Shown: piece after piece, positions 34,047 through 57,653 of the stretch
Position numbering within the stretch: position 1 is the stretch's first letter
Layout of the letters: each line of letters opens with the position of its first letter
Source of the DNA: Vermamoeba vermiformis
Lineage: Eukaryota
Length of the DNA stretch: 64,000 nucleotides
Assembly (NCBI GenBank): GCA_045837725.1
Contig: JBEWZL010000102.1
Location: 186,001-250,000, forward strand
Direction: 5' to 3'
Translations under genes and position numbers: made by a program
Notes under the pieces: model-generated
What the model saw: only the letters and a program-made list of their open reading frames with translations
Databases searched by the model: none
What the model was told of the DNA's origin: nothing

Positions 34047-35866
34047 ATGCAGCTCAATCACGTCACGAAGCTCAGCCAAGTGCCGCGATCAGGTCTCAAC
34101 AACTCACTGGTGCACATTAAGGGCTGTATTGTTGCATTAATTACCGACAACAATGCGATTTATTTCTACGAATATAGACACCATGGTAGAGAGCTGCACT
34201 TGCGCGATCAGATCCTCTTCTCGTCCCCGTTGATTGAGATCGAGTCTGTCGCGCTGTCCACGGACGAACAGTGGCTCATCATTGCGACTAGCAGCGCACT
34301 GACCACACTCACTGACTCTGCGCGACCAGCGGTGCATTTGTACAAGGTACCAATTACCTCTTGGTAGTGACAGTTCTGACCGCTGCGCAGGTGTTGGATC
34401 TGACGCGTTCACTGAACGACACCGAGTCACGTGCCATGTTCAGTGCAGTCACGTGTTTTTCAGTGTATTTTCAGCCCAAGACTGTTGCAGCCACACCGAT
34501 CGATCAACAAGAACTCTTGCTGGCAGTGGGTGGTGGCAATGGTGTCGAGTTATTCCGCTGTTCACTGACCGACAAGCACGTGACACCAATGAGATTGCTG
34601 CACGACGCCACGAGCATCAATCACGTGACTTTTGACACTAGCGGTCACTACCTGGCCATTGTACGTGTCACTGATTGACAGCTGGTATTGACACTTGCCT
34701 TTTTAGGTAGCAGCAGATGGCCACGTGGGAGTGTGGTCACGTGACAAGTTACTGACGAGTGCGGGACACATTGATTGGTTCGATCACGTGACCTCGGAGC
34801 GCATCACTGATTTGCAGTTCGGGGGTGACCTGCAACGACCTCTGCTGGCACTCAGCACGTGGGACGGACAACTCTTTGTGTACGCCCGTGACACGCAAGG
34901 TGGCACCTGGCAACACGTGGCAATGAATTTGCTGCTGACACGCCAAGAGAAGAACACGAACAACCCTGGTGGATTTATTCAGTTCAGCGGGCGCTATCTC
35001 GTCACGTGCTTGCAAGATCAGATCGTCTTGTCTGACACGTGTCAAAATGCGATCCACAAGGTGACGCGAGTGCCACTTAAGGACAGCACAGACTGCGTTA
35101 AAGGTGTGACCCTGGTAGATGTCAATGAGGTGACACGTGCTGTATTGGTGCTCACTCGATCACGTGACTTGCACTGCATGACACTGCCACTGCCACTTTC
35201 CATATCTGGCAATGAGTGTTGCATCGCCCAGCACGCAGACGTGGAGTTGTATTTGCAGCACGCAGCAGACTGGCGCCATTCACCTTTGCAGCTGTCACTG
35301 CACTCTGCCACTAGATACGTGTCATTCGCATGTCCGCACGTCAGTTACGAGATGTTGGGCACCTCTGTCACGTGTGCTGTCACGCTGTCACACGTGTGTC
35401 TCGCTGTCGGGTCACAACTGCTGCTGTACGAGACTGCAAATGACACGTGGCGAGATATTTTCACTGAACAGCCTGTAGTTGCCGTCTGTTTCATGAACGG
35501 TGAGTGATAGCTGTGTGTGGTCAGTACTTAATTCTTTGCTGCGCAGATCACGTGGTGGCACTGCTCGAGAGTCACGCGCTAGTCACGTGGCAGCTATCGA
35601 CATTGAAACAGAAGAGCTGTGTGAACCTAAAAATAGACTCTCAGTCACGTGGTACTTTTTTGCTTTCACAGGGAGACTTCTGCTGCGTTGTGCGATGGCA
35701 GAATGACACGTGTCATTTGGAATTCATGACGGTGTCTGACATCGGTCTCAAATTACATTCGACTGCCCGATACGAGCACGTGACTGAGGTGCGGTACACT
35801 ACCTGTCGGAACCTGCAAATGACATGTGCCAGCGGAGAAACTCTCTCGATCGAATGGCCAAATTAA
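34047..35866 (+). CDS. Divergent WD40/beta-propeller protein
   Basis: SINHVTFDTSGHYLA, DGHVGVW and ITDLQF..LALSTWDGQLFVY WD-like blades; introns at about 34348, 34661 and 35499. Confidence 0.65.
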
Positions 35867-35981
35867 AAATAGATTGTAAATAACCTCATTTGTACAAAAA
35901 ACAAAGCGCTTTTCTCTATTGAACAATTAATACAAGCGAGCACTCCTCGGTGCCCAAATATAGTCAAACAATCACGTGACT

Positions 35982-38373
35982 CTATTTCTTGCCACTCTTC
36001 TTGCCGCTCTCACTCGACAGCTCAGAGTTGCTGTCGTCGCGACTCTTCGACTTGACCTCTCGGCGCCGCCTCTTCGCGCGCTCAGTGTCCTGCTCGTCAA
36101 TCTCCATGCCCTCTTCGTCGTCCTCCTCTTTCGGACTGCCGCGTTGACGACGACTGCGACGCTTCTTGTGCTGCGCCTCGTCCTCAGGCTCAATCTGCCA
36201 GTCATCGTCGTCCTCATCGTCCTCGTCCTCGCGCTCTTCTTCCTCCTCGCGCTGCACGGGCACGGCACTCTTGTCGCTCATGGTCACATCGACGGCGGGG
36301 GGCTCTGCCGGGTGCACTCTCCGTCACGTGCTCGCTGTCACTCATCACCACGTCACTCTTCGCGCCCTCACTCGGCACTGGCACTGCGGCACTCTCGGCC
36401 ACGTCACTCTTCGCTGGCACACTGTCACTCGCTGCTGGTGTGCTGGCGACATTAGTGTTCGGTGATGGCACGTTGCCAGGTGTCACCGTCGCACTCGGTT
36501 CGCTCGGTTTGACCTCGCTCTTCTTCTCCTCACTCGCGCTGTGTTCGCTGTGACGTTTCTTCTCCTCGTCGTCGTGCGGCAGATTCAGCGGCGCCAGTCT
36601 GTTCGTCTCGTTCTCGCCCTCTTTGCGCTCGTTGTTCGCGCCATTGGCTGCGCTGCTCAGACTCAGTTCGTTGCTGGTCAGCGCGGGGCCTGCAGGGGCC
36701 AATGAGCCACTGCCACCGAGCTTGAGCTGTGCGGGACCAGGGCCTTGCAGCGGTCCTGGATGCACTGCTGCGCTCTTGCTGGCCTCGCTGAGTGGCACGT
36801 TGTTGTAGAGTGCTGCGCGCAATATTTGCAGTCGTTGCTGAATGTGCTTGTTGTTCGGATCCAGCTCCGAGGCCCGCGAATAGGCATCGAGCGAGTCATT
36901 GAGCTGATTGCAGGACTCGTAGAGGGTGCCGAGATCGTACCAGACCTCAGAGAGATAGGGATTGAGGCGTATGGCGCGCATGTAGGCGTCGAGTGCATCG
37001 CGGTACTGATTGATCTGATAGTACAGCACGCCAATGCTGCACCAGAAGGTCGGATTGCGACTGTCGCGATACACTGCTTGTTGATAGGCGTCGTAGGCCT
37101 TCTTGTAGCGGTGCTGACTCATGTAGCAGCGGCCCAACAAGTACCAGGTCTGACCGTCTGTGGCATCGGCATCGATCGAGCGCATCAAGTACGAGATGGC
37201 AATCTCTTGCTGCTGCTGTGCTGTCATCACCGTGCCGTCCTCGTTGCGCAGTGTGCTGCCCTCTTTGAGCTCGCTGCTGTCACGTGATTCGTGGCCATTG
37301 CTGTCGCTGCCCTGGTGCGTGGTCAGCAGCGAGTGCGGGGCATTGGCACCTGGCACCAGCGCACTGACATCGCTGCCGAGGTGGTGGTACAGCCAGCCGA
37401 GCTGTTGCAACACCTTGCCGTGATTGGGATTGTCTTTGAGCACGCGTTCATAGGCCTCTTTGGCGTGCGCAAAGTCCTTTTTGAGCTCGTGCACGTGTCC
37501 GATCTGAAACCAGATGTCACCCTGCACGAGCGGTCTGGGCGGCTGTTGAATGATCATTCGGAAGCACTCCAAGCTCTTGTCGTACTTGAGCTGTTGCTTG
37601 TAGATGATGCCCAAGCGGAAGTAGATCTCGTTCTTCTTCTCGAACTGCGGATCCATCTTCAGCACCGCATTGAACGCCTCTTCCGCGTGTTCGAAGGAGC
37701 CATAGCGGTCGTACAATATGCCAATGCCGTACCAGAGATTGGGGTCCTGCTTGGGATTGGAGAGGTGATAGAGGGCCTGTTGATAGGAGGTGTACGCCTT
37801 CTGCAGATCTTCCATCATCAAGTAGCAGTGGCCGAGTGCCCCCCATATCTCACCATTATTGGACTCGATGTTCAGTGAGCGCTGAAAGTACTCCACTGCC
37901 TAATTAGGACAACTGGTCAGCACCCACCCCGCGCGAAGAATTGTCTTAATCGTGAAGTGCGCGGTATTGTGGTCATAGTGCACCAGTCATTGCAGTAATT
38001 ATGATTGCGCGCGAATAATCGGCGAGCATATTTAATTTAATTTTTTTTATCGTGCTGCACGTACCTTGGGATACATCTCCTTCATTCGACAGATCGAAGC
38101 TACTTGAGTGAGTGCTTTAATATTATACGGATTATGGCGCAACGCGTTCTCGAAACAAAACATCGCCTTGTCCAAATCTTGAAGGGATTCCCACAGAGCC
38201 CCTAGAAAAATTACTATAAATTAACTGCCCCACGCAATTGCACGGCCCAATCACGCGCGTGCACCGAGACTAGGCGCGCTAAATATACAACACATGTGAC
38301 ACGTACCGAGCTGCAGCCACGAGCTCTCGTTGGCATTGTTCAACTTTTGCACTATCGACACTTGCGTCGTCAT
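35982..38373 (-). CDS. CYC8: TPR corepressor Cyc8/Ssn6 (TrfA-like); apparent 1-nt frameshift near 36311
   Basis: WGALGHCYLMM..LQKAY.SYQQALYHL, LWYGIGILYDRYG, EIYFRLGIIYK, AYDAYQQAVYRD.RNPTFWCSIGVLYYQINQYRDALDAY, EVWYDLGTLYESCNQ. Confidence 0.92.
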
Positions 38374-38548
38374 GAGCTGGAGGTGTGGTGTGTGCTAGAC
38401 AGTGTCGGTGCTGTTGGATCGGTCGCGAATGCAATAACTGAATGAAATCAAATTTAACTCGCGCATGAAAACAAATTATTTTTTTGGTTGTGATCTGCTG
38501 CGTGTCAAATCAATCGACAACGATGCACGCAGCAACAGAGTGCACAAT

Positions 38549-39793
38549 ATGAGCGACTATGAAGAGAGTGACTACGAGCAGTTGATACACTCCGCATTGC
38601 TCCACAAGCGCACGACACGCGAGGTACATCCACGCTCCACCGCGGCACCGCGCTTCGTACTGCGCGACATAGGTGCCCCAGTGACAGCAGTGCACCTCAC
38701 TGCCAGCACTGCCAGCACTGACGCGCTATTTGTGGGCACGCAGCACGGACTGGTGGCACAGTATTCGCTGCAGAGTTATCGACGCGTGAGTGCAGCACAT
38801 CTGCCGCAACACCGCGCGAGTGTGATGAGCTTGGAAGAGGACAATAGGACGTGGTTGTATAGGTAGGGCATTGCATTGATGCGCGAGCTGGAATGGAAAT
38901 TATTATATTATTATAATTATTTTATTATTTCCAACTAAATTAGCGAATTCTTCTCGCCGTTCAGTGAATTGCAAATCACGTGACTCACGCATTGACACGT
39001 TTGACAGTCAAGCACGTGACGGTGCAGTGCATGTCTACGATCTCGCCGTACAGAGCGCCGTTCGTTCACTGAACACGCAGTGTGAAACTTTCTGCAAAGG
39101 TTGCGTAGGTGAGTCACGTGCTGCCACTTGCCTAATTTGGTAACACTCCTTTCAGGGACGCAGGAAGGTGTGGCACGCTATTGGGTCACTTCGTCCTCTG
39201 CAGAGTCATCGCGCGTCGTACTTTGGTCTATAAATAGCGACGAATCGTTGCAATGCTTGCCTGACCACACTGCCAAATATGGCATGTGCATGGCCACACG
39301 CATGCACGACACGGCCTCATACAGCATCATTGCAGGCACGTACGAGAGCGGTCACGTGCTATTTTGGGATGCGCGTCAGACACACGTGCCACTGACCAGG
39401 GCCCTCGTTCATGAACCAAGCAGTGATGGCACTGCTGTCTCGGGACTCAGCTTTGACTGGCAGAGTGACACGTGTCAAGGAGTGGCAGGTGGCACTGATG
39501 CGCAGCTCGTGTCATTCACTCTCGATGTGTCACGTGCTGAGTGTCACGTGACTGATCGCAGAGTGACAGGTGTCAAAGGCGGTACTGCAGTCGTGCGCTT
39601 CGATGCCAGTTTGACACGTGTCATCACGGGAGGTTGGGATCACGTGACACGTGTGTGGAACTGGCCGTTGACACCCAATGTGACACCTGTCACACTGAAG
39701 CACGCAGCAAGTGTCACTGACCTGTCACTGTCACGTGACTCGACACTCGCCGTCGGCACCAATGACGGGCATGTGACGCTGTGGTCGCTGTAA
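38549..39793 (+). CDS. GNB1L: WD40 protein GNB1L/Asa1-like
   Basis: APRFVLR...VTAVH, YGMCMA, YESGHVLFWD, TGGWDHVTRVW, LAVGTNDGHVTLWSL. Confidence 0.75.
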
Positions 39794-40450: not shown

Positions 40451-43112
40451 TCATTTGCGACTGAATGCGCGACTGACGCGCACAGCTCCGATTAACCAAA
40501 AAAGGACAGATGCAGCGAGGACAACGTAGCCGAGTGAAATTCCGCCCTGCAGTCCAGTGCGCGGGGACTGACATCGATCGAGCGTCAGAACTGCATCGTG
40601 AGGCACGTGATTGTGCAAGATTTCATGAACGGCGCGCAAGTCATGTACTAATAAGGAAGTGAGGACTGCAGCCAGTTCTTTAAATTTGAGCTGTTCACTG
40701 AACTGAAAAGCTAATTTTAGCTTGAATGTCATGAGGTTGACGCGTTGTGTCAAGGCCACGTCAATAACACCTGTCAAAAGTGTCAAATGGTGACTCACAG
40801 CGCTGATCTGCTCGAGCACGTGATCAGTCAAGTGAATCACGTGATTGACATGTGCAGCGTCAATTTGCAGCTGAGTGACACTCGTGCTGGGTGCATAAGA
40901 GCTAAAAATAGACGGCAAGCGTGCCACCAGCCAGTCATGCGTCCACTGCGGTGTGACAGCTGTCAACGTGTGACTCGCACCGCCTGTCACGTGACTGCCC
41001 GTCTCAATGTGCAATATCTCGTGCATATGAGATTGAAATTTCTGCAAAGCTAACTGGTGTTCCGCGGTCAGCTGCAAAGTGAGGTGTTCTGGCACGAGAC
41101 CTGCAAATGATGAGTTAGCCTAATTTGGTAATGCACTGCTCGAGCAGTCACTGACCCCAGATGAGCTGCAAACAACTGCGCAACACAGCCCTGGTCGGTG
41201 CATCCCCCGCACTGCAAAGATCTGTCAGTGGTGTATACGCATCGATGTATAATTAAATATGTCCGTATATTTCAGATCGATGTATAATTAAATATGTCTG
41301 TATATTTCAGATCGATATATAATTAAATATGTCCGTATATTTCAGATCGATGTATTAAATAGTTATCGATGTCTATATAAATGTATGCAACACGCTACCT
41401 CTCCACCACACGCGCGTCCTCACACGTGTGGCCCAGATCAATGTGCTGCTGAGTGTCGCGCGGCTGCACGGCTATGACCATATTAGGAAAGGTGTGAGAC
41501 CACGAATTGCGAGTCACGTGATCAGAATCCGTCAACAGCACGTGATCTTCAGTCTCGAGCACCACCACTGGCAACACGTGTCTGTCACTGGACTGCACGC
41601 CACTCAGTGCCTGCCAGTGTCTTTGCACGAATTCGCGAATCACGTGGCTGTCAAAGTACTGTCGCGCAGACGAGTGCACAGTGCCACTGCTGTCGAGGTA
41701 CGCGCTCGTTTTGGATTTGAGGGCTGAGCGCTGCAATCTCCGACATATCTCGCATTCCTGGAGATTTCGTCTCACCACTGACACTTGCACTGCACTGTTG
41801 CCAAATTTAGGCAATGCTGGATTTGTAAGCACGGACTGAATGACAAAATAGAGTTATTTTCGCTGAAAGTAACCAAAAAGGGAAATATTGACCTGAAGCG
41901 ATGCCACATCGAATTTCAGTGAATGCGCCTCGTCACGTGATTGAGTCACGTGCAGGACTACGACTTGTATCTCGCGCTGGAGATCAGTGACGAGAGGCTT
42001 AAAATAGACGCGCGGAACAATGACCTGATCGATCAGACGTGCCACCAGCGTGCTGATGTACCGTGCGAGCAGTGTCGTGTCCAAATTAGGCAAGTCCACG
42101 TGTTCGTGCACACCTTCGCCTGCATGACGCGGTCCTGAACTGGCCCTGGTTGATCGTTAGCGTGCTGCAAATGACACGTGTCAATGCGCGTACCTGCTCA
42201 GTGCGCGGAGATCTACGAAGAGATCGCGGTCTCTGTGCCACTCGTTAGTTCGTTCATGAATGCGTAGTTCACTGAACGCGTACCTCGTCCACATGATGCC
42301 CGCACAGCGCTGATTGGCCAGCACGTAATTGCGATGTGATTGGCCGGGCTCGTTCATGAACAGATACACCGTGCTGGCATACGCGTCACGTGCTTGTCGT
42401 GCCAGCACTGCATCGAGCTGCGACTGCTGCACGGGATTGTGTGTGTCGTGGAGATCTGGCGAGAGTCAGTGCTGCTAAAAATAGCCCTGTCCACTTACTC
42501 TGAATTGCGCGGAATAACTCGGAGTTAGTATCACGTGCTGTCACTTGATAGTGAAATCTCCGATGGCTGGGATAGAATGTGGTGTTTGCAGCTGTCACAG
42601 TTGCCAAATAAGGCAAGTGCACCGTACGCGACAACTGATTGTATATCTGCGACTGAAGCACGTGAGTAAACGTCTAAATTTAGCAGCACGTACTTGCAGA
42701 GTGGCTGGATAATTTCCCACGAGCACCACGTGTACAGTCACGTGTCCCAAGTGTGACAGCAAGAACTGCAGCGAATGTTAATACTTTGCTCGATGCGTCA
42801 TAGTCACTGTTGCCTATTACAGCTGCATTGTCCAAATAAGGCAATTACCTGCAAGGACTGCAGCTCAGCAATGTAATTCTCGCGCGGCTCGGACCAGTAC
42901 TGCTGCAGCTCCCTCTGATCGAGTGCCGCATATGGATCATTGTCGTATGTAGTACTAGCACTATTATCGCTATTTTTCAGCAGCAAATAGCTCACTTTGG
43001 ATTCGCTTTGTTGACGTGAGGTTGAAATCTGTTCGTAGGACTGCGCGGTGAGACCAGTGCATAGTGTGAGCACGGTGATGCATATATATGCGAGTACTAA
43101 GTGCGCATTCAT
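40451..43112 (-). CDS. Signal-peptide, C-terminally anchored protein of unknown function (resembles a plant/protist family with a FxDLxAGP..GEG motif)
   Basis: Signal peptide MNAHLVLAYICITVLTLCTG; LFVDLRA...GPRHAGEGV...LPNL; C-terminal TM ISLGYVVLAASVLFWLIG; several introns. Confidence 0.6.
41241..41360. repeat. 35-bp tandem repeat, about 3.4 copies, intronic
   Basis: ATCGATGTATAATTAAATATGTCCGTATATTTCAG at 41241, 41276 and 41311, partial at 41346, with single substitutions. Confidence 0.9.
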
Positions 43113-43245: not shown

Positions 43246-46027
43246 ATGCAGAGTACGCACAACAAGAAGCGAGTGCAGTTCAGATTTGAACAAGAAAGGC
43301 CCGCCAAGCGACAACGCGTGGATGCAGCTGTTACACGCCGAGCAGTAGTGAGCAGTGAGCTCGAATATGAGCACAATAGTGCTGCTGATGATAGACGTCA
43401 CGAGCTCACGGGCGAGTTACTGCCTGCATCGGTGGGTGTGACCGCGAGTAGCTGGATGGAGACTAGAAACGCGTCAGACGATGATTCTAGCACTCAAATG
43501 ACTAGTGATACGCACAATACAGCACCACTAACTATGTCTGGCTTGTTGGGCTCTATTCGTCTGCCTCGATCTGCCGCACCTGGTAATTTAACTTAATTAT
43601 AGCGCAATATTGTTCGAAATATTATACAATTAATATCGCTATGAAATACTATGATTATCATGACTATACACGCATATTCCGTGCTAAGTACTGACGCACA
43701 CTGGTCTGCAGCGGATCCACGCTTCTCAGCAGGCAAGCGAGGTGCGAGTGCACTGCACAAGCGCAAGAGTGACGACAATAGCAGCACTAGTGCCAGCAGT
43801 CTCGCTGCGCAGGGACTCGAAGTGGCACTGATCGTGAATCTGCATCCGCACGGCTATTCACTGAACGATCAAGAGCAGCTGCACGCCTATCACAAACACA
43901 GCGCGGTGTCACGTGACTTGGTGGAGTCGATCGATCACAATCTGCTCTATCATCCGCTGCACGACCTCGTGGCCAATCTGCAGCCCAAGTACGACCACGG
44001 CGCACTGCTGCTGCAGATCCGCGACTTCAGGGGCCCAGTGCTGTCTGCAGCTGATCGGAAGTGGTCCGATGAGGTCACTGCGGAGGCGAGCAAGGACGCG
44101 GACACGGAGCACAAGGAGCCTGAGGTGAAGAGCGAGGTCAAGGACGAGGCTATTAATAGCAACACCAGCGCTAATAATAGCAACACCAATAATAGCACCC
44201 CGAGTGCGGCCAATAATAGCACAGCTGTCGCACCGAGCACTGCTGTCGCTAATAATAGCAGCACCAATAATAGCACCGCTGCCAGCGAGGAGCCAGGTGA
44301 CAGCAAGAGCGAGGAGAAGAAAGACAGCGCGAGTGTCAAAGTGACACCTGTCACACTCAAACATCCAATCACGTGCTTGCATCCCCGACACTCACAGCAG
44401 TCACGTGGTCTGCCCACCGTGCACTACGTGCTGCTGCGACCGAGTTACGAGCACGTGATCGGCGATGTGCGCCAGCTGATCGATCGATTGGTGGCAGAGA
44501 GTGCCAGCAAAGCGAACAACAGCAAACTCAACGACAGCAGTGCTGCCCTGGATGAGAGCGTGGACCTGGACAGCATGATCGAGTCGTTCATTAACCGCGA
44601 TGAGACTAATAATAGCACCACTGACCAGGGCCCTGGTCTGCGCGTCGAGTCCAAGACTGATGCCACCAATCTGCTCGAGGCCAAATTGTTCCGCGCCCTG
44701 GTGCCAGACCTCTGTCTCGATCCCAGTCCCGAGGTATTGTTCCGCAGTAATTCCGCTCACTACAATGCGCGCAAGATGCTGCGCTCAGTGCCGCACAAAG
44801 ATCTCAAGCGCGCACGTGTAGTGCCACGTGTCATCACCACGCCACGTGCTCTCGGTGTATCTCCGGTGATCGAGAACGAGCACGTGATGCAAATTGAAGC
44901 CACCACCGAGCCCACACCCCTAGCGGTTGAGAATGGCCATTCAGTGAACGAGCACGTGGATGAGTCCGCGTCGAGCAGTCAAGTTGACACGATGACACCT
45001 GTCAATGTGACACTCGAGACTGAGCCCGTTACTAGCTCGAGAGTAAGTCTTTGCAACTATTTCGGCGCTGTAGCGATCGATTGACGAGCTAAATTTAGAA
45101 GCGCGAGTCCAAACTGCTGAATTTTCTGCAAACCATCAGCCACGAGGCCCTGGTCGACGAAAACAATCGTTATTTGCACCGCGAATCGATCTACCAGCCC
45201 CTGTCCATCATCACGAGTGCCAAGAGTGCCACCAGTGCCTTGCCAAATATAGGCAGCGAGCTGTCCTTTGCGCACACGAACAAGATGAAGCAGGCGCAGG
45301 AACAGAGTCGCACACTCAAGTACGGCATCAACAAGAACCGCGACTATTTGCAGCTCGAACTCGCCTTCACGCACCAGGGCTCCGATCACGTGCACTTGTT
45401 GCCCGAGGAGCATGATCCGCGCTGGACGGGCAAGCTCTTGGTGCTCAAGGACGTCGTGCCTGGCAAGCCGCTGCCGTCACGTGATCCGCGCTACGAAGTG
45501 GAGTTCTCGATCGGCGATCAGTACCAGACGCAGCTGTTCGTGAACACGCTCAATCAGATCGAGATGCAGCAGGCCGGCACGCAGCTCATTCAAGACTCGG
45601 CTGCGGGCTATCAAGCACACCCGACCCTGCCGCAGACCCTGCCCTACATGCCACCTGGACCCAATCAGCCACCTGGCCCTGGTCAACCTGTGCCTGGCGG
45701 ACCGGTTAAATTGCCTTTTATGGGTGGTCCTGGTGGCGCAGTGCCGGGCATGATCAAACGTCCCGATCAACCCATGATGCCTGGTGGCATGCCAAAACTC
45801 CCGCCCCAGATGAGTGTGGTGCCCCCTGGCGGCATGCCACAGAACCCCATGCTGATGCAACGCAGACAAGGTAAGCGAGTTACATACGAGAGCTAGTACT
45901 GACCTGGACAGTAGTGCCACCTGGTGCTCCACGCCCTGGTGCTCCAATGCCACAGAGCATTCCTGGCCAGCCCTACATGCCACCAGGTCCCAATCAGCAA
46001 TTCCCACCCAATTATCCACATCATTGA
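43246..46027 (+). CDS. SPT20: SAGA subunit Spt20/SUPT20-like
   Basis: Spt20 domain motifs LIVNLHPHGYSL, LLLQIRDFR, YVLLRPS and LEAKLF...DLCLDPSPEV; P/G/M/Q-rich C-terminus. Confidence 0.8.
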
Positions 46028-47750: not shown

Positions 47751-47768
47751 TAATTCGTCAGGGGTAAT

Positions 47769-48827
47769 CTAATTGTCCTTCTTGATCTTTGCAGCACCAT
47801 TTGCAGCACCATTTGCAGCACCATTTGCAGCACCAGTCTTGCCGTCCTTCTTCGTGTAAGTGCGAGAGAAGAAGCGGTTGAAGAGCAAGTTGAAAGTGGC
47901 ATTGGCAAAGATGGTGACACCGACAATGGTCACTGAGCCCGAGCAGTGTTGTTGACTGTTCACGTACAGCCACAGCGCGAGCACGGCGAGATTGAAGTAG
48001 AACTGCGTGATTTGCATCTGCGTCAAGTGTTTCTGCAGCACCGATCAGTCGCGTTACTATATAAATATATATATGCATGTGTGACACGTACCTTCCACCA
48101 GATTCGCGCGTCAGGGTCGAGTGTGGTGCGCAGATAGTAGTAGTACATGACCGTGTGCACCAGGGTGTTGGTCACCACGCCGATCCACTGAAACGTTGTG
48201 TTCGTCAACAGGCCCAACCACGTCGCGAAGAGTGTCAGGATGTGGTGATAGACGTGCAAGAAATCTAACGGTTTCTGTGCAGTGTGAGTGTCAATAGCAG
48301 TCACGTGATAGCAGTTGCTATATTTAGCTACGAAGATCGCTGCCGTACCTTCTTGAGGGCAATGAACACGGTATCAATAAATTCGTAAAATTTGCTCAAG
48401 TGGAAGATCCAAACCCAATAAGCGACGCGTCCTTTGTAATAACGACCATTCGGGTCGCAGAACAAGTCATTAGGCGTAGCATTTTCCTGTCAAAATGAAA
48501 GGTTAGATCCCAAACTGAAATTCAAAAAATATCTTAAATTCGAAATACTGAGAATAGTCCTACCGTGAGCATGGCCATAGCGAGGTCATATAACAGACCC
48601 GACAGCACGACAAAAGATCCAACGCTCAAAATCAAGTTGTGCAGCGCTTGAGGATATTTCAGCGAGAGTTGAAAGGGAAGACCATATTTGAGACCAAAAA
48701 TAGTAATTAAATAGACTATAGAGGCACCTACAGGCCACTGCCACTCCGAGAATGGCGTGACACCGTATTTAAATTCAAAGTTGTTCATGTAGTGATTGGC
48801 GTCCTCGATCCACTTGTTGAGCTCCAT
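47769..48827 (-). CDS. Very-long-chain fatty acid elongase (ELO/GNS1/SUR4 family)
   Basis: FHLSKFYEFIDTVF, FLHVYHH, NTLVHTVMYYYY, LTQMQITQF; KKxx ER-retrieval end (KKDN); AANG tandem repeat at about 47790-47835. Confidence 0.95.
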
Positions 48828-49064
48828 TGTGGTGTGTTGCGCGTGGTAGTGTTGAATTAATTGGTCTTGGTCTGCTTGTTCTGAATAATGGAATTACGTC
48901 GTCGCGCGACGTGACAAAATGTCCGAACGGAGAATAATTCCATATTTGGTAATTTAAATTCGGAGTCAAAAAAAGGAAAATTCGTTGCTGAGAATTCAAT
49001 CGAGGTACCTAATCGTCTCCACATTAATCAGGCCCACGAGTATTCGCAAAGCTGTTTATATACA

Positions 49065-50637
49065 TTACATGGGTGGTGCGCTGGGACTGGGCAGTGCAGC
49101 GCTGCTATTATTAGCGCCAGTGTTGTGGATCACCGTGTTGTGCACCACATTGTTGTACACCACCGTCACGTGACTCGAGGGGTGTGCAGTCACGTGATCA
49201 ATCCAGGCGCTGTTCACTGAATTCTGACACGTGCGCCACTCGTGCTCGCAGTCCTTGAGCTCGGCATCGCGCGTGTGTTCTATTTGCGTCACTCGCTCCT
49301 CGCACTCACTGCGCGCACGTGCCACTTTCAGCTCGCAGTTCTCTACCAGGGCACGTCGCTCGTTCTCAGTCACGTGCTCGCCCTCCACTGCACGCTCCAG
49401 TTCACTCTGCAGCTCGCGCACACGTGACTCGTACACCTTGCGCGCGGCACTCTCTTCTTCGCTGGCACGTGATCGCGCACGTGATTTGCGTTCTTTGCGC
49501 CGCTTTTTGCCCGCAGCGAGCTGATCGTGCAGTGCGCGCAGTTTGAGCACGTGACCAGCAGGCAAGGACAGGGCCTCGCCGTGCACGGAGATTGGCCACT
49601 GCCAGTAGTGGGTCAGCAGCTCCACGGCACTCAGACGCGCAATCTCGCGCTGGAGATATTCCGCGAGCTCTTGCGGCGTGAGATAGCCCTGGTCGACGAT
49701 CCAGGGCGCATAATCACGTGCGATCTGTTCGAGGGTGAGCAGGCCAGTGCGCAGGTCCATGAGTGCGCGGTCGCGGAGCACGTGGAGTGAGAGCAAGTGG
49801 TGCTGCACGAGGGGCTGCGCACCAATCTTGATCAGTTCACTGAACGAGTAGTCACGTGACTTGTCATCTGCGACGATGAGCGAGGTGATGAAGCTCTTGT
49901 CAATATCGAGCTTGTCGACGAGCCAGACCCCGTAGCGACACATGCGCAACAAGCAGGGTGTGGCGTGGTGGTGCAGCACATCCAGCTCGAAGCGCTCTTT
50001 CAAGAACTCTTTGCTCAGCACTCTGTCTGCGACTACGTGATTCAATATCTGGGAGTGATACGTGCTCCATATGTCATCGAAGCCCATGTTCTTGGCGACA
50101 ATCTCATCGATCAGCTTGCTTCTAATGTTCTCGATCGAGGCAACTGTCAATCCAATAAGAATGGAGTTTGCAACAAAGAATAGGCCGCAACTTACTCTTC
50201 TTCAAGCTCTCCCAATCCCACTTTTCAAAGCTCTCGACAAACGGCTTGCTTTTGAATTCTAAGTGCGCAGGTAAGCTACATCCAACATCTTTAGAGTGAA
50301 TTTACCTTGTAAATATTCTCTCAATGCTTCTGGATCATTCATGTATTTTTTAGTGATTAATCCTGCACCAAATATGGATGCAACTGCAATACGTAAATTT
50401 TTAGGGCTGGTCGAAGCGAGATGGAAGGTAGATGTACTTACTTGCGCTGAAGACATAGGTTCGAGCGCGATGTGACCCTCGCAACCATGCTATTAAAGCT
50501 ATACTTGCACCGCTGAGCAACAAGATCCGGCCCAGCGTGCGACCAAAGGAGCGGCGCTGATACCACTCTGCTTTGACGAGCTGCAAGTGTTCTGCATCCG
50601 GATCTGAAGTGGGGGACTGACGTGTGGTCATGTCCAT
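49065..50637 (-). CDS. Hypothetical protein with N-terminal TM pair, helical middle, coiled coil and C-terminal PSAP motif
   Basis: ORFs 50401-50637, 50259-50456 and 49065-50150 joinable by GT-AG introns; ends ALPSPSAPPM. Confidence 0.6.
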
Positions 50638-51091
50638 AGTGTAGTGCGATTACTGAGTGGAAATGACGTTCTTCTGCTTTTCAACACGTCGGCAGAATTC
50701 TGCCTAATATTTCAGGAAGGAAAACAAACTGTCCCATAAGGGACCTAATAGGGACGAGATTTGACGGGGTGACGCAACAGGCAGATAATCAACAGCTGTG
50801 TCGCACCTTGTTGTGAGTGCCTTCCCACACTTACACGACCGTGAATTCAGCACGCAGTCACTGGGAATTCAACCGTACCCGACAGCTACGCCTATTTTAC
50901 ATTACAGCGCGTAGTAGCAGAGAGAGAGAGTACAGCGATATGACGAGGGACACTATTTGGAGCTTTTAAGGTTTTTATTGTTTTTTGTTTGGTTTGGTGC
51001 TATTTTGAGCGCAATTTCTATTCACAGCACACTGTCACGTGACCAGTACTGTCACGCCACGAGTGCAAATTTAGTGGCAGCGGTAGCTAAT

Positions 51092-52749
51092 TTACTGGAA
51101 TCCAGCCACGTACAACCTCTTGTCTGCAAATGTGAAAATAAACTGTGAGTGACAAGCACTAGATATTTTCCAAATAAGGCAAACATACCGATCTCAGCAG
51201 GAATGGGCTTAATCTCCGTATCGAGCTCCTTCTCAATCTTGAGCAAGTTGTAGCGGTCCTCATACGTGACAAGATTGATCGCGAGACCGAGGTGTCCAAA
51301 TCGGCCCGAGCGACCAATGCGGTGCAAGTAGGTCTCACTGTTCTTGGGGAAGTCAAAGTTGATGACGACATTGACTGCGGGGATGTCAATGCCGCGCGTG
51401 AACAGATCTGACGACACCAAGTGGCGGCAAGCTCCGTTTCTGAAGTCGTGGAAGACGCGATTGCGGTGTTCTTGCGGCATCTTGGCGTGAATGTAGAAGC
51501 ACGAGTAGCCGAGGTCCGTGACCTTCTTGGCGAGCAGCTCCACACGCGTGACGGAGTTGCAGAAGATGATGGACTGATTGATGTCCAGCTTGGAGAAGAG
51601 CGTGTTCAGACAGTGCACCTTCTGTCGCTCATCCACAAAGGCGTAGTACTGCGTCACACCCTTGAGCGTCAACTCCTCCATCAGATTGATCTCGTAGGGG
51701 TCCTCTAAGAAGCGGTCTTTGAAGTCCTTCACCGTGATGGGGAAGGTAGCTGAGAAGAGCAAGATCTGACGGTCCTTGGGCAGATAGCCGATGCACTTCT
51801 CCACGGCCAATCTGAACTCGGGGGACAGCAGCTTGTCAGCCTCGTCCATCACCAAGTACGTGCACTGCTCGAGCTTGGCCACGCCCTTGTGCGCCAAGTC
51901 CCAGACACGTGCAGGGGTAGCGACGAGAATGTGCACACCCTGCATGAGTCGAATGATGTCGTCCTTGAGCGAAGTGCCACCAGTGGAGACCATCACTTGC
52001 AGACCTTCAATGTACTTGCCGAGCTGTTTGCACACTTGACTGGTTTGCAGCGCTAACTCTCTCGTGGGCACCAAGATAATAGCTGCAAATATACTCGTTA
52101 ATTACATAGGGCTCGCTAATTATCACAAGAGCAATTGATGGTCAACGGTGACTGCAGTATGAATTATTATTGAAATTAAAATAAATTCAAGATATTTTTT
52201 GCAAACTAACCAAAAATTTTCAACCGCTTTACAACGTCGATATTGAATTATCAACTACGCGGCCAATAATTAAATTATTTTGTTCAATTTACCTTGAATA
52301 GCCTTCTTGGTCGCATCAACTTTCTCCAAGGCAGGAATCAGAAAACTGGCTGTCTTGCCAGTACCGTTCTTCGCACGAGCCAAAATATTGCGGTGAGCGA
52401 GAGCAATGGGAATGGCTTCTTCTTGAATAGGAGAAGGACGTTCAAAGCCCATCTCGTAAATTCCCATCAAGAGCTCTTTCTTTAAGTAATAGCTGTCGAA
52501 ATCAGTGCCTTTGGTAGTTTTGGTAACGTCCTAATATGTTACGTTGATACATGCTATATTGAATTCGTTGGTGCTGATCTTACTTCGGTTTTAGGTCGCA
52601 AATCTGGTGCTGGCTTGTTAATTCTTGATTTCCAATCCTCGTCTCCACTGTACAGAAAAAATGAGGAAAAAATGTTAATATTCATTTTAAAAATTATCAT
52701 AAGCTTAGCCATACGAATTGGACGTGTGGTTATTTCTTTGGTTATCCAT
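51092..52749 (-). CDS. DDX6: DEAD-box RNA helicase DDX6/Dhh1
   Basis: [58 protein letters not shown]. Confidence 0.97.
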
Positions 52750-53011
52750 CCAGCAAATCTTCTATTTTACAAGGACAAAAAAAAAATATTGTACAAAAAT
52801 ACTGCAAGTTTGCTAAAGATAACACGAGCTTCTAGCGATAGTCCTAAAATACGATACTTTCACTCGATTTGTTGCTCTGGTTAAAAAAAATGGGCATAAT
52901 AAAATTTTTTCACGGTTGTTTTTTTAACGATCTGACACGACGCTGAAACACACGTCAACACTGCGACACAGTGTTCTATAACTCATTTATTTCACGTGGT
53001 AATATTGCGCA

Positions 53012-53834
53012 ATGAGACGACTATTTGGGGGTTCAAAAGCAAAAGAGCCCAAAGAGCCACCACCATCCTTGGATGACGCTACCAAAATGGTAAATTTATT
53101 GTACATTATCGCTATCATGGCGATGTAGTGCAGTATATTGTTTTATTGAGGGCATTGAACTTTAATTCTCTATTCGTTCAATTTCAAAAATAATTCGAAA
53201 AACGAAAATACTTTCTAATAATAATAAGAAACAACCAACTAACGCGAATTAGATCAATACGCGCATTGCGGGCATCGAAGATAAGATCAAGAAGCTCGAT
53301 GTTGAAGTGGTGAAGTACCGCGATCAAATGAACAAGATGCGACCAGGCCCCGCACAGAACGCCATCAAACAAAAAGCGCTGCGAGCCCTGAAGCAGAAGA
53401 AGATGTACGAGGCACAGCTCAACTCGCTGATGACGCAATCGTTCAACATGGAGCAGACAGCCTTCACGCAACAGTCGCTGTCCGACACGGCGCTGCAAGT
53501 GCAAGTGATGAAGCAGGCCAATGTGAGCATCAAGGCGCAGTTCCAGGACATCAGCGTGGACGAGATTGACGACCTGCACGATGACTTGCAGGACTTGATG
53601 GACACCTCCAACGAGATACAGGAGATCATGTCGCGCCAGTACGAGATGCCCTACGATGTGGACGAGAGTGAGCTCGAAGAGGAGCTGATGACCCTCGAAG
53701 CAGATCTCGATGCGGATGCGGATGCAGTGCCGAGCTATCTGAGTGAACTGCAGGCACCCAGTGGCGCTATCAATGTCGGAGGACAGAACGAAGCACTGCC
53801 CGATGTGCCGCTCAGCAACACCGTCAACAACTAG
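53012..53834 (+). CDS. CHMP5: ESCRT-III-associated Vps60/CHMP5
   Basis: MRRLFGGSK; KQKALRALKQKKMYEAQ...QSFNMEQ; EIQEIMSRQY..P.DVDESELEEEL. Confidence 0.95.
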
Positions 53835-54163
53835 CGGCAGTGCTGGATTTGTACATAGTAGTAAATAGGGACTTTGCGACCTCGTTGCTGTCATTCTTGG
53901 TGTACCTGCTGCACCGTCATACTAGAGTCGAGTCAGCATACTAATGTTCTCCTATTAGAGTCGTATACATCCGTCAACAATCACCCCCTAAATCAGCCTG
54001 ACGAAATTTCTGGTGGTGATATTAATTTTGACACAGATTCTTATTCAATTCAGCAGTCTCACTTTTCAACGTGTAGCACATACAAATTGCATGCAACATA
54101 TTAGATCGAGCTGTACACTAGCGGAGCTATTCTAAAAGGATTTTCGGCATTGGATCCACTACA

Positions 54164-56518
54164 ATGGATTCGGAACAGTTGGAAGTGATTCAACTTTTAG
54201 ATAAAGATATTGATTTGCTTAAAAAAGGTAATATAATAGTCTTACGCATGTATTAGCACTATAATTCACGACTAGAATATTTGCGGAATTAATATTTTAA
54301 TTTTTTGAAATTCTCGTTACCAATTAATGCCGCGAATAACACTCTAGCATCGCAAGGTATACGAGATGAGCGCAACAAACTGCCCGATCTCATCAAGACA
54401 TCATTCAGCGACTCTCAACTTGCTGATCCCAACATGCTCGATCTGTTCGTAGATCTGCTCCAACTCTCACAGCAACACTTGACAGTACCGCAATCACGTG
54501 CCGGATCACGTGACAAATCTTTGCAGACGTGGCCCGTGCTCGAAGTCGTGCCTGACACGCGGCCCAGTCCTCTGCTCGTGCAGTGTCGGCACTGTGGCCG
54601 CATGTTGCGCGCTGAAGTGTTTCACGAGCACGTGACTGGCTGTCAACTGGCACGCGCTGAATCACATGGCGAGTCACGTGGCAGTGCGAATAGAACACGC
54701 GACAACAGCCCTGCCCCGCGTCACGACGACAGCGAGGACTCGGCCACTGACGAGCGCAGTCGTGAGCACGTGACTGATCGTGCGGGTCAGGACTTGACAC
54801 GTGACATGTCAAATGTAGCACGTGATCTGTCTCCGCTGGCACGTGAGCTCGTGAAGAAAATTGGCGCTGAACACAGCAAACGCAAGCGCGACACTGACAC
54901 GGAGGATGAAGGTTTGTGTTTGACACGTGTCATTCGCTGTACTCGAGCTCACTATTGCTTGTATTTTTAGCGCCCAAGAGCAAAAAACGCAAACTCAGCA
55001 ATGAAACAGCTGTGCTTCCTAAAAAGGAAATAGCCACGACGACAGAAGTGCCACCACCCATCACTCAACAACACGTGCCGATTATTGACACGTGGACAGC
55101 GGAAGAACACGATGAACGCACGACACTGAAGAAATTGTTGATGTCTAAAAATAGCAGCAAGAGCAGCGAAGAGCACGTGCAAGAATTGCTGCAATTTATC
55201 AAAACAGTGCCACCACGACCCCTCGTGTTCACGAATGACGAGGACGCGCTCTATTTTTGGCACCAATCGCGCGCGCAGTCCACGCTGCCAGTTGCCACCA
55301 GAGCCGCACGTGATCGTCGCGCCCAACGACTGCGCGGTGCCGGAGTGCAAGTGAGTGCGCTGCCGAGTCGCGAGTTGGTGCTGAGCGAGTACCGCTACAG
55401 CGTGCCCAATCGACAGCTCAAACTCACCGCGCAACAAGTGCTGCTGCAACAGACGGTCAAGATCGCACTGCTCAGCGGACTGTTGCATCAGAACGACGCC
55501 ACCACCGGCAACAAACAGCTGCGCTCCAGCAAGGGACGCGTGCGAGCTAATAATAGCACCACACCGACCCCTCCGCCGAGTGCAGCAGCGCCACCGAGCA
55601 CGAGCGACAAGAGCGCGAAGACGAGTGACGCGAGTGCTGCGGAGAGCGAAGTGGACGAGAAGTCACTCATGGCCAAGCTGCTGCAGCTCGAGCCCAGCAC
55701 GCCTGCACCTAATAATAGCACCAACAACACGAACAGCGTGCCACCGACAGCTAATAATAGCAACAATGTGACAGCAGTGAGTACACCAGTGCCAGTCACC
55801 ACCGCACCCAGCACGTCGATTGCGGTGCCGGCCACACCTGTCACCCCCGTGCCTGCTGTCACTGCTGTCACTCCCACACCAGCCACGGCAAAGACTGGTC
55901 ACGTGCCCACGCTGCTCGTGCCCAACTCCGCGCTGAGTGCCACCCTGATGAAAGATATGGCCTTAAAAGGCAAGACAGGCTCAGGTGTGCCACTGACAGC
56001 TGTCACACTGCTGCACCCGACTCAACTGCAAGGTGCTAATGTAAGTTGTGTTTATTGCCTAATATGGTAACTCAAACATCACGTGCACAGATCAAGATGC
56101 AAGTCAAAGGCAAAGTCCCGCCCCTGACACAGCCCAAGGCCGCGCCCCCTCCGACAGGTGTCAAAGCAGCACCCGCGCCAGTGAGTGTCACGCCGAAGCA
56201 GATCTCGCCCAAGCCCGCAGTCAAACAGCCGCCACTGCTCGCCAAGCCCGTGCTGGACGGAGCTCTGCTGAGCGGCAACCGAGTGGCGGTGCTGCCGATC
56301 ACGAGTGCGAACACGCCGAGTCTGATGCGCGCACCGAACACGACTACCGTGGCTGGACGCGTGGTGAGCAGCATGCCTGTCGTGCTGACCACGGCCAAGC
56401 CACTCGTCGCACCGCCCAATGCTGTCGTGCCACCCACCGTGCCGGCCAAGAAGAGCACTGCCAAGTAAGGACATTTGTGTTGTGTGGCACGTGACTGACT
56501 TGCTAAATTAGGAAATGA
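54164..56518 (+). CDS. Sgf73/ataxin-7-like protein (N-terminal Zn finger, long low-complexity tail)
   Basis: LVQCRHCGRMLRAEVFHEHVTGC resembles the N-terminal Zn finger of Sgf73/ATXN7. No clear SCA7 domain seen; P/T/A-rich C-terminus. Confidence 0.55.
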
Positions 56519-56683
56519 GTGCCACCACCCTGTGAATACCCCTCGACGCGTGTGAATACCTCTGTTAATACTGTCAGTTGACCGCTGAGCTGATGCTGCA
56601 CCACTGTAATATAGTAAACCAGTCCTCTCTCTGCGCTGGCGTGTCGTTCACTGAATACAATCTTTCACGGTGCTTGACAGGTG

Positions 56684-57653
56684 TCACTCGCCCTCCCCCT
56701 GCGAGGTGTGCGGGAATGACAGGTCCCAATAGCCCTCAGGTGTGTGCGGGGGCGTGTAGAGCTGTTTGTGGCGACTGACGTGTCCAATCAGCTCGTCTTT
56801 GCTCTTGTGTCCGTGCTGGTGGTGTTCGTGCACGTGTGTCGGGGCGTGTGCGGCACCCTCATTGCCATATATGGCTGCGTAGAACTGCGCGCACTGTTCG
56901 CACTCGTGGCCCGTGAGTTGTTCGCGGTCCTCTTTCTTGCGCACTGCAGCCACGTACTTGTACTGCTTCTTGGGCCGTCGTGCGTCGTTGCTGTCTGTTG
57001 TGCCATATTTGGTGTCTGCATTGCCATATTTGGTATCCTCATCGTCATCGCGCTCAGAGACGCGTCGTTTCTGCGGAGTGTGACGGAACAGCTCGAACTC
57101 GTCTGCTTCACTGTGCGGCAGTTCATCCTCGTGTCCGTGCTCGTCCTCCACTGCGCGGGACTGACGGTGCTCGTGCTTGGTACTCGCAGCACTCGTAGTG
57201 TTGTTGTGCGCCTCTTCGCTGTCACTCAAGTAGATCACGCTGTACTCCAAGTGCTCGGTGCTGTTGGCTTTGTTCATGTTGTACAAGATGCGCTGAGGCT
57301 CGCGCTTGTCTTCGAGATCTAATTCGTCTACTTCAGCGTGCTTGGTCTCGCTCATAATCAGCTTCTTGTTGTCCTCTTTCAATTCCTCCGATCGACTCAA
57401 TTTTTCCAGTAATTTTTTGTATTTATCAATCGTTTCTCGCGCTTTCATATATTTAATTTTCCACTCGTCGCGCTCTTCTTGTAACCTTTAATCAATTGTT
57501 AGTAATTAGTGTGGCGAGATCCAGCGTGTAACTAGCGTACTTGAATACTTGTTCGTGCACATCGCTCAACAGGCGCTGCAGTGGGCCAGTGATGCTGTCC
57601 AATGTGCTGCCACGTGCGCGACTAGTGGTGTGTGCAGTAGTGTTCTTGTGCAT
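56684..57653 (-). CDS. SAE2: DNA end-resection factor CtIP/Sae2/Ctp1
   Basis: YKYVAAVRKKEDREQLTGHECEQCAQFY, SRHK and TPEGYWDLSFP; N-terminal coiled coil. Confidence 0.9.

Follow-up and report, generated by a model that had tools for sequence, protein, structure and literature searches.

Two short dyad words, CCW6GG and CTAW4TAG (W being A or T), occur at a large excess over chance, and at one spacing each, in a 64-kb stretch of nuclear DNA from Vermamoeba vermiformis (assembly GCA_045837725.1, contig JBEWZL010000102.1, positions 186,001 to 250,000; termed here the window, to the 64 kb of which all statistics refer). They are found on either strand in exons and introns of particular genes, where they override codon preference and cluster with CACGTG. 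As far as can be judged from the letters, they carry as much information over 10-16 bp as the sites of MADS-domain proteins, the SRF/Mcm1/AGAMOUS type corresponding to TTDCC-WWATWW-GGHAA and the MEF2/Rlm1 type to (G)CTA-W4-TAG(C), with TTGCCTAATTTGGTAA-type and GCTAATAATAGC-type sequences as representatives. The organism's own MADS-type proteins may recognise the words, which would then be maintained or propagated as DNA within the bodies of certain genes; this reading is held tentatively and is given a little less than an even chance.

The positions listed in the original prediction are all exact matches (15/15 for CCW6GG, 17/17 for CTAW4TAG). The latter 17 are all the CTAW4TAG sites in the window; CCW6GG occurs 28 times in total, with five further sites inside the interval first considered (37853, 40496, 45714, 50368 and 55018) and eight upstream of it (9929-34698). 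The hybrids mentioned in the same place are likewise present (CCW6AG 11, CTW6GG 5, CCAATAATAG three times). Dinucleotide shuffles of the whole window yield on average 1.69 copies of CCW6GG (largest 7) and 0.64 of CTAW4TAG (largest 3), the observed count of either word being reached in 0/100. As a dinucleotide null is weak for mosaic DNA, three stricter nulls were applied. Among 254 maximal W6 runs, CC stands on the left of 51 and GG on the right of 50, with both flanks present in 28 cases versus 10.0 under independence (odds ratio 10, p=1e-10); for W4, W5, W7 and W8 runs, the joint CC..GG counts equal expectation, with no coupling of the flanks. The spacing series is correspondingly sharp (CCW4GG 6, CCW5GG 5, CCW6GG 28, CCW7GG 2, CCW8GG 0), other dyad flanks around W6 are rare (GGW6CC 1, CGW6CG 2, GCW6GC 5), and the 17 copies of CTAW4TAG compare with 3 of CTAW2TAG, 4 of CTAW3TAG and none of CTAW5TAG or CTAW6TAG.

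The two remaining nulls address coding and non-coding DNA separately, the coding set comprising 54 confident segments (27,672 nt) called in this analysis from codon statistics, and the remainder 36,328 nt. When synonymous codons are shuffled (1000 times per segment), CCW6GG is observed 11 times versus 2.20 (max 7), CTAW4TAG 9 times versus 0.83 (max 4), and the degenerate form C[CT]W6[AG]G, a count of which against a null had been proposed, 26 times versus 5.95, with 0/1000 shuffles reaching the observed count in each case. The absence of an excess over a codon-aware null had been named as a ground for abandoning the original prediction; that refutation fails, because both words exceed all 1000 synonymous shuffles. 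Shuffling of codon order within the segments gives still lower expectations (0.77 for CCW6GG and 0.09 for CTAW4TAG, against 11 and 9), and the progression for CCW6GG from 0.77 through 2.20 to 11 implies that peptide order and synonymous choice both lean towards the words. In the non-coding remainder, base shuffles within 30-, 60- and 200-nt blocks give ~2.4 CCW6GG (max 9) and ~1.2 CTAW4TAG (max 7), versus the 17 and 8 present.

The information in CCW6GG extends beyond its ten base pairs. TT flanks 23 of the 56 half-sites versus a background of 6.2% (p=6e-14), the flank types being TTGCC (13), TTTCC (5), TTACC (4) and TTCCC (1), so that TTDCCW6GG is present 22 times versus 0.17 expected and the full 16-mer TTDCCW6GGHAA four times versus 0.00 (39128, 42601, 51167 and 56055). 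Within the core, a central AT is found in 19/28 sites versus 56/226 other W6 runs (p=9e-6), and, once the occurrences are read with TTDCC on the left, T occupies the fourth core position in 22/22; in 17 of these the central AT dictates it, and the other five have a TT centre, all in the same orientation. The core is itself self-complementary in only 3/28 CCW6GG sites, which is the chance level (1/8; 31/226 in control W6 runs), and in 3/17 CTAW4TAG sites (chance 1/4); the sites are dyads and not, as had been supposed, true palindromes. Alignment of the 22 TTDCCW6GG occurrences with 20 nt on each side revealed nothing shared beyond the 16-mer, and since the outer flanks are unrelated the sites are independent instances rather than repeat copies. 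The halves of CTAW4TAG are similarly coupled, TA....TA being found in 17/41 W8 runs flanked by C..G versus 6/76 with other flanks (p=4e-5); GCTA precedes 18/73 W4TAGC half-sites, and 9/17 CTAW4TAG sites have the form GCTA-W4-TAGC.

The MADS-domain consensus of AGAMOUS is given as TTDCCWWWWWWGGHAA (PMC4035604), the yeast Mcm1 motifs as TTTCCTAATTAGGAAA and TTNCCNNNTNNGGAAA (PMC1779545), and CTAWWWWTAG is used as the Mef2/Rlm1 string (PMC3250504, PMC3900518); for Dictyostelium, two SRF-like and two MEF2-like MADS genes are described (PMC3640940). The resemblance to SRF- and MEF2-type MADS consensus sites, as originally proposed, is stronger than could be seen at first, with CCW6GG extending to the 16-bp AGAMOUS/Mcm1-type consensus. 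In common with the CArG box of the SRF-Mcm1-AGAMOUS group, CCW6GG has the CC(A/T)6GG core, strict 6-bp spacing, TTD...HAA flanks, a preference for a central A-T, and half-sites in dyad symmetry around a non-palindromic AT core, and four of the window sites match the 16-bp TTDCCWWWWWWGGHAA exactly; this likeness is one of sequence alone. The window sites differ from CArG boxes in their abundance (~1 per 2.3 kb), in lying mostly in coding exons and short introns rather than ahead of a few target genes as parts of promoters or enhancers, and in being concentrated in some genes, where codon preference is overridden. With respect to the MEF2/Rlm1 site, for which the string is CTA(A/T)4TAG, the likeness is the exact core in 17 sites, the coupled halves and the G...C extension in nine of them; the difference is that 12/17 are coding, some being local duplicates, and that none lies in the first 35 kb.

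That the AT islands containing the words run counter to codon preference was part of the original prediction, and is borne out both by the synonymous shuffles and by asparagine codons. The preferred Asn codon in the coding segments is AAC. Within Asn-Asn-Ser (NNS) tripeptides, AAT is used 21 times and AAC 5 times, versus 160 and 242 elsewhere (Fisher p=5e-5), and 10/13 NNS tripeptides are coded AAT-AAT-AGC, as had been noted; Asn beside Asn in general is not AAT-rich (32 AAT, 45 AAC). The codon before AAT-AAT-AGC is NCT in 7/10 cases versus a usage of 19.7% (p=8e-4), which completes the CTA half-site. The alternative held open from the outset, that NNS tracts reflect local slippage with normal codon usage, stands in part, in that local duplication makes some of the NNS signal; Asn usage is nonetheless abnormal, and slippage fails to account for the recurrence of this non-preferred coding in three unrelated genes.

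With respect to gene structure, 16 CCW6GG sites are in exons, eight in introns (37899, 51170 and 56058 with RNA support) and four where neither was called; for CTAW4TAG the numbers are 12, four (45089 and 48318 being RNA-confirmed) and one. The density of CCW6GG is similar in confident coding DNA (0.40/kb) and elsewhere (0.47/kb). The coding CCW6GG sites use two reading frames and encode unrelated peptides (TKYG, PNMV, LPFMG). Ten of the 12 coding CTAW4TAG sites are in the frame xCT-AWW-AWT-AGC, encoding A/T/P/S-N/I/K-N-S, with 40711 (CTA-AAA-TTA-G) and 40902 (xCT-ATT-TTT-AGC) as exceptions. One-sided TTDCC flanks are on the sense strand of the transcript in seven cases and on the antisense strand in six. 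Within introns the placement is variable: at 42832 and 51170 the site begins 5-7 nt downstream of the 5' splice site, at 39131 and 48318 it is in the middle, and at 37899 and 45089 it includes the 3' splice site. Only 4/14 of the RNA-confirmed introns listed have one (37899, 45089, 48318, 51170). This low proportion and variable position do not agree with a splice signal, i.e. a branch point, polypyrimidine tract or acceptor. Since frames, peptides, strand, compartment and intron position all vary, the words point to a property of double-stranded DNA, rather than a protein motif, RNA element or splice signal; they look like dyads acting at that level, and not like hairpins, repeat copies or splice signals. 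No helical or nucleosomal periodicity was seen in their spacing, and no known RNA family in Rfam overlaps any site. One of the 40 strain differences listed is inside a word versus 2.2 expected, numbers too small to gauge constraint. A strain difference at 49840, C>G in run X6, is at the centre of GTTCACTGAAC and gives GTTCAGTGAAC, the reverse complement of the same word, so that the dyad is kept.

The two words share their genomic surroundings with other dyads. CACGTG is present in 129 copies, mostly as TCACGTGA or GTCACGTGAC (78 in coding segments versus 35.3 under synonymous shuffle), and TGACASSTGTCA in 20 (9 coding versus 0.19); TGACACGTGTCA occurs ten times and TGACAGCTGTCA three times, and the enrichment, whether in exons or in introns, extends to GTTCASTGAAC, TTCATGAA and GACCAGGGCCCTGGTC. 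Perfect palindromes of at least 12 nt number 55 versus 22.6 in order-3 Markov simulations. The stretches at 34-36, 39-45, 49-50 and 54-57 kb are hot for all words; the interval 0-32 kb is cold, as are the genes for the TPR protein, DDX6, Snf7, the aminotransferase and RagA, in which there are few of the words or none. Among coding segments of at least 300 nt, word density ranges from zero (13/29 segments) to 31.6 per kb in the WD40 exon, with some tallied dyad word about every 30-100 bp in the hottest, and has no relation to GC content at third codon positions (rho -0.04). The co-accumulation with CACGTG that had been proposed holds at the 1-2 kb scale, with Spearman rho of 0.28 (1-kb bins) and 0.41 (2-kb bins) for CCW6GG, and 0.52 and 0.72 for CTAW4TAG. 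No circular shift of the 2-kb bins reaches the observed correlation, and none of the 1-kb bins reaches the CTAW4TAG or pooled value, that for CCW6GG alone being reached by 62/2000; the resolution of this test is limited because only 63 and 31 distinct shifts exist. The median distance to the nearest CACGTG is ~120 nt from the words versus ~350 nt from random positions. CCW6GG is still in excess in the cold first 35 kb (8 versus ~0.9 predicted from the whole-window shuffle rate of 1.69 per 64 kb). The process favouring protein-bound motifs in gene bodies, which had been thought general, is hence a property of some genes and stretches only. Outside the window, 119 loci with TGACACGTGTCA at most 30 nt from CACGTG were found, none with the other words of the window; most are AT-rich (GC mostly 0.2-0.35), with a minority at GC 0.5-0.77. 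Other dyad words also recode peptides; in the WD40 exon, for example, H-V-T and V-T-P-V-T recur.

The combination of strict spacing, flanks and half-sites that carry information, and a degenerate AT core with positional bias but no self-complementarity is characteristic of duplex DNA read by a dimeric protein. That a protein reads the words, that this protein is of the MADS type and that its binding maintains them is what we infer. If so, both words would be recognised by dimeric DNA-binding proteins that the organism itself encodes, in this case of the MADS type. The sites would persist or multiply as DNA within the transcribed bodies of a subset of genes, densely intermixed there with CACGTG-type and TGACA-dyad words irrespective of exon or intron, and binding might maintain them, either through selection or through a bias that it introduces into repair or conversion. 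In favour of this reading is also the presence of SRF-like and MEF2-like MADS genes in Dictyostelium (PMC3640940), an amoebozoan, as are the best named relatives of the window's alanine aminotransferase. Several observations weigh against such an interpretation. In the usual descriptions, MADS sites belong to promoters or enhancers, a location that the CCW6GG sites do not share, most sites of both words being exonic (16/28; 12/17) or intronic (8; 4), with RNA support for 5/12 of the intronic ones. Together the two words amount to ~1 site per 1.4 kb, very dense for specific regulators. A single frame (xCT-AAT-AAT-AGC and kin) holds all the confident coding CTAW4TAG sites, several of which are duplicated locally: SPT20 has two copies, 97% identical, of a 31-nt segment with two of the words (44169-44199, 44247-44277), and partial copies nearby. 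For the other word, the site at 57024 repeats that at 57003 as a 21-nt tandem copy. The sample amounts to 64 kb, and the coding segments and most intron calls were made within this analysis. Finally, the piling up of unrelated words in the same genes could point to one shared process independent of transcription factors.

Such a process, i.e. molecular drive or mutational bias in which repair, gene conversion or replication spreads dyad words without binding, the MADS/bHLH/TALE likeness being coincidental or reflecting the specificity of the enzyme itself, is considered unlikely, albeit the most substantial of the alternatives. It would fit the sharing of the same 1-2 kb patches of exons and introns by CACGTG, TGACASSTGTCA, GTTCASTGAAC, CCAGGGCCCTGG, CCW6GG and CTAW4TAG, the general excess of long perfect palindromes, the bending of amino-acid order besides codon choice, and the sparing of conserved genes (DDX6, Snf7, RagA, alanine aminotransferase, TPR), since purifying selection on their proteins would resist it. 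Degenerate AT cores that are not self-complementary are, however, not expected from a hairpin or template-switch mechanism; there is also the 16-bp match to a protein consensus, with TTD/HAA flanks and central AT included; and the non-coding DNA in 0-32 kb is little constrained, yet word-poor. We know of no drive of this kind in eukaryotes, and a literature search on the words returned single-site transcription-factor papers only, with no report of genome-wide accumulation.

Other explanations are improbable. An RNA-level element, either a small hairpin (UUGCC-loop-GGCAA) or a site for an RNA-binding protein that defines short introns, is suggested by the 12/45 sites in short introns, by those just after a 5' splice site (42832, 51170), by three that contain or abut a 3' splice site (37899 and 45089, RNA-confirmed; 34698, predicted), and by the intronic one-sided sites (18001, 34698, 41119, 42832), all of which have TTDCC on the sense strand. 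Against it are the near-even division of all transcribed one-sided sites between strands, the few confirmed introns with a site and its variable position there, a stem of only 4-5 bp, central AT information in what would be the loop, which fits DNA reading, the location of most sites in exons or in DNA called as neither exon nor intron, and the lack of Rfam overlap; we give it little weight. No better placed, and largely refuted, is the proposal that the words are a by-product of AT islands, of acceptor sequences (W-rich with AG/G) and of slippage or duplication in Asn/Ser tracts. The duplications just described do yield the two CTAATAATAG sites in the SPT20 repeat copies and the 57003/57024 pair, 15-nt direct repeats border the NNS block, which is not the same in some RNA contigs, and three or four sites coincide with 3' splice sites; but the AT-run-aware, local-composition and codon-aware nulls are all exceeded, the Asn codon bias is peculiar to NNS rather than to neighbouring Asn residues, three unrelated genes share AAT-AAT-AGC together with the preceding NCT that completes the dyad, and CC..GG coupling is found at spacing 6 only. 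The Asn usage and the recurrence in three genes likewise speak against a low-complexity tract arising by slippage or duplication as the sole cause. Most improbable of all, and also largely refuted, is descent from a short mobile element or dispersed repeat with the words at its ends or core. The high copy number and the resemblance of the 16-mer to terminal inverted repeats (TTGCC...GGCAA) might suggest it, and the introns of some protists are spread by mobile 'introner' elements; the 22 aligned occurrences, however, have no conserved flank, target duplication or common length, and many sites are in frame within exons with no insertion visible in the local peptide. The absence of shared sequence beyond the 16-mer in these 22 occurrences speaks against a dispersed repeat, miniature inverted-repeat transposable element or introner.

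Two further known systems offer comparison. Exonic transcription-factor sites ('duons') and heterotypic site clusters are known from the human ENCODE literature. As with duons, transcription-factor-type words in the window lie in coding sequence, have a measurable effect on synonymous codons, and cluster with one another; the effect here is far larger (5- to 10-fold over the synonymous null), shapes amino-acid order and extends equally to introns. The uptake sequences (USS/DUS) of Pasteurellaceae and Neisseriaceae are bacterial, with one word per genome, and are explained by biased DNA uptake and recombination. By analogy with these, short words accumulate in the window, also inside genes, at a cost to codon and peptide usage, and are rarer in highly conserved genes; unlike them, the window has a set of transcription-factor-like dyads rather than one word, and to our knowledge no uptake-type mechanism exists in a eukaryote. 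It is conceivable, although we regard it as doubtful, that some process with sequence specificity, linked to the organism's dimeric DNA-binding proteins (MADS, bHLH-type, TALE-type), installs and preserves their consensus sites across the exons and introns of selected genes, overriding codon preference and bending amino-acid sequence, as a eukaryotic counterpart of uptake-sequence-like accumulation or a new form of gene-body marking. Should the observations hold genome-wide, the influence of recognition words of DNA-binding proteins on coding sequence would far exceed the debated duon effect in animals, and would be gene-specific and blind to exon-intron boundaries; should the cause be binding-independent drive, it would constitute an unusual accumulation of words in a eukaryote. 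Either way, a concrete 16-bp consensus and 45 mapped sites (Table 1) are directly testable.

The window is gene-dense eukaryotic nuclear DNA of ~48% GC. Its introns are short and of the GT..AG type; 14 among the joints listed (15 of 30) are confirmed by spliced contigs of two public RNA runs (X5, X6), with lengths of 47-210 nt. Raw reads (X23, X24) are thin here (126 and 136) and give introns in the DDX6 gene only. A first gene finder over-called introns (262 and 277); a second recovered 8/13 known minus-strand introns and 1/1 on the plus strand, with genes merged, and the sites were checked by hand. Placement of the sites combined the spliced contigs, the coding segments and the frame shifts required between open reading frames (ORFs), the crude gene finder being a guide only.

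Table 1. Positions in the window of the two words and of genes assigned by Pfam
Feature	Sequence	Positions	Strand	Context
CCW6GG	CCATAATAGG	9929-9938		outside coding segments, without gene model
CCW6GG	CCAAATATGG	13672-13681		upstream of coding segment 13994-14488
CCW6GG		14222-14231	+	coding exon, L-P-N-K-E; TTTCC flank on minus side
CCW6GG	CCTAATTTGG	16894-16903		neither exon nor intron called
CCW6GG	CCTAATTAGG	18001-18010	+	predicted 3' end of intron 17933-18009; TTGCC flank
CCW6GG	CCAAAAAAGG	22611-22620	+	open frame T-P-S-K-K-G, probably coding; gene finder called intron end
CCW6GG		26316-26325	+	coding exon, ASH2L-like gene, P-T-K-K-G
CCW6GG	CCTTTTTAGG	34698-34707	+	predicted 3' splice site of intron 34661-34706; TTGCC flank
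CCW6GG		37853-37862	-	coding exon, TPR gene, S-N-N-G
CCW6GG	CCTAATTAGG	37899-37908	-	contains 3' splice site (CCTAATTAG/G) of intron 37900-38064; RNA joint, X5 and X6
CCW6GG, full 16-mer	TTGCCTAATTTGGTAA	39128-39143 (CCW6GG at 39131)	+	47-nt intron 39109-39155, WD40 gene; predicted by frame logic, GTGAGT..CAG
CCW6GG		39273-39282	+	coding exon, A-K-Y-G
CCW6GG		40496-40505	-	222-codon ORF 40451-41119, V-L-F-W; probable last exon
CCW6GG	TTACCAAATTAGG on minus	41119-41128	-	predicted 55-nt intron 41101-41155
CCW6GG		41478-41487	-	coding exon, F-P-N-M-V
CCW6GG		42081-42090	-	ORF 41854-42156, D-L-P-N-L-D; probably coding
CCW6GG, full 16-mer	TTGCCAAATAAGGCAA	42601-42616 (CCW6GG at 42604)	-	exon inferred from frame shifts between ORFs, H-L-P-Y-L-A
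CCW6GG	TTGCCTTATTTGG	42832-42841	-	starts at base 5 of predicted intron 42766-42848
CCW6GG		45714-45723	+	coding exon, SPT20 gene, L-P-F-M-G
CCW6GG	CCATATTTGG	48940-48949		between genes
CCW6GG		50368-50377	-	78-nt exon 50306-50383 flanked by two RNA-confirmed introns
CCW6GG, full 16-mer	TTTCCAAATAAGGCAA	51167-51182 (CCW6GG at 51170)	-	starts 7 nt into RNA-confirmed DDX6 intron 51124-51188
CCW6GG		55018-55027	+	coding exon, L-P-K-K-E
CCW6GG		55961-55970	+	coding exon, A-L-K-G
CCW6GG, full 16-mer	TTGCCTAATATGGTAA	56055-56070 (CCW6GG at 56058)	+	intron 56041-56090; loose end of X5 contig at 56091 carries upstream exon letters
CCW6GG		56865-56874	-	coding exon, SAE2/CtIP-like gene, A-I-Y-G
CCW6GG		57003-57012	-	coding exon, T-K-Y-G
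CCW6GG		57024-57033	-	coding exon, T-K-Y-G; tandem copy of 57003 site
CTAW4TAG	CTAAAAATAG	35627-35636		downstream of ORF 34707-35507
CTAW4TAG		39228-39237	+	coding exon, WD40 gene, W-S-I-N-S-D
CTAW4TAG		40711-40720	-	ORF 40451-41119, K-L-K-L-A
CTAW4TAG		40902-40911	-	ORF 40451-41119, P-S-I-F-S
CTAW4TAG		42475-42484	-	predicted 43-nt intron 42456-42498; frame shift between ORFs requires intron
CTAW4TAG		42674-42683	-	predicted 41-nt intron 42653-42693
CTAW4TAG		44150-44159	+	coding, SPT20, A-I-N-S; perfect 12-mer palindrome GCTATTAATAGC
CTAW4TAG	CTAATAATAG	44171-44180	+	coding, SPT20, A-N-N-S; in repeat copy 44169-44199
CTAW4TAG	CTAATAATAG	44249-44258	+	coding, SPT20, A-N-N-S; in repeat copy 44247-44277
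CTAW4TAG	CTAATAATAG	44606-44615	+	coding, SPT20, T-N-N-S
CTAW4TAG	CTAAATTTAG	45089-45098	+	last 10 nt, 3' splice site included, of RNA-confirmed intron 45043-45098
CTAW4TAG	GCTAAATATAGC on minus	48318-48327	-	inside RNA-confirmed intron 48275-48348
CTAW4TAG	CTATTATTAG (CTAATAATAG on coding strand)	49105-49114	-	coding, 49-kb gene, A-N-N-S
CTAW4TAG	CTAAAAATAG	55145-55154	+	coding, S-K-N-S
CTAW4TAG	CTAATAATAG	55547-55556	+	coding, A-N-N-S
CTAW4TAG	CTAATAATAG	55709-55718	+	coding, P-N-N-S
CTAW4TAG	CTAATAATAG	55751-55760	+	coding, A-N-N-S
TPR protein		36214-37899	-	Pfam
WD40 protein		39113-39793	+	Pfam
SPT20		43645-45084	+	Pfam Spt20_SEP, E=3.7e-12
DDX6-type helicase		51052-52101	-	Pfam
Snf7		53253-53831		Pfam
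SAE2/CtIP-like protein		56684-57487	-	Pfam
Alanine aminotransferase		59152-60348		Pfam

Further Pfam identifications in the window include RagA, an ASH2L-like protein and myotubularin. Pfam searches of 54293-54970 and 54910-56070 gave no family, and with that no backing for the label 'Sgf73-like' used in the original prediction; for the orphan gene at 40.4-43.1 kb neither a full-length protein search nor Pfam searches of its ORFs gave a match, and the SPT20 exon protein had no relatives among metagenome contigs. The best named relatives of the alanine aminotransferase are from dictyostelids, Physarum and Balamuthia, all amoebozoans, at 57-59% identity; by this measure the organism is probably an amoebozoan with no near relative sequenced. 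The top-scoring named protein matches for the DDX6 and aminotransferase genes are filed under a sturgeon (flagged at source as a contaminant), a frog and a metamonad, which, to judge by these records, suggests that the organism may often turn up as a contaminant of other projects.

The Asn/Ser-rich block of SPT20 (44142-44304) is bracketed by 15-nt direct repeats (AAGAGCGAGGTCAAG and AAGAGCGAGGAGAAG; 44128-44319). Some RNA contigs of X5 and X6 leave the window sequence exactly at 44141 and 44305, and another X6 contig spans the block; since some contigs break at its edges while one spans it, the block is apparently an insertion that is variable or allelic. The orphan gene has, between exons and at ~41225-41350, ~3 tandem copies of an AT-rich unit of ~50 nt, holding GATCGATGTATAATTAAATATGTCCGTATATTTCA. 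Two U6 small nuclear RNA genes on the plus strand, at 10731-10834 and 25613-25716, are 14.9 kb apart and have the same Rfam score (114.6 bits each), and a SNORD36-like C/D box small nucleolar RNA is found on the minus strand at 15894-15973 (38.8 bits), with no motif site near any of the three. Histidine codons in all 54 coding segments are skewed to CAC (263 versus 19 CAT, i.e. 93%), compared with 58-74% C for the other two-fold C/T pairs, and this skew is uniform over hot and cold genes.

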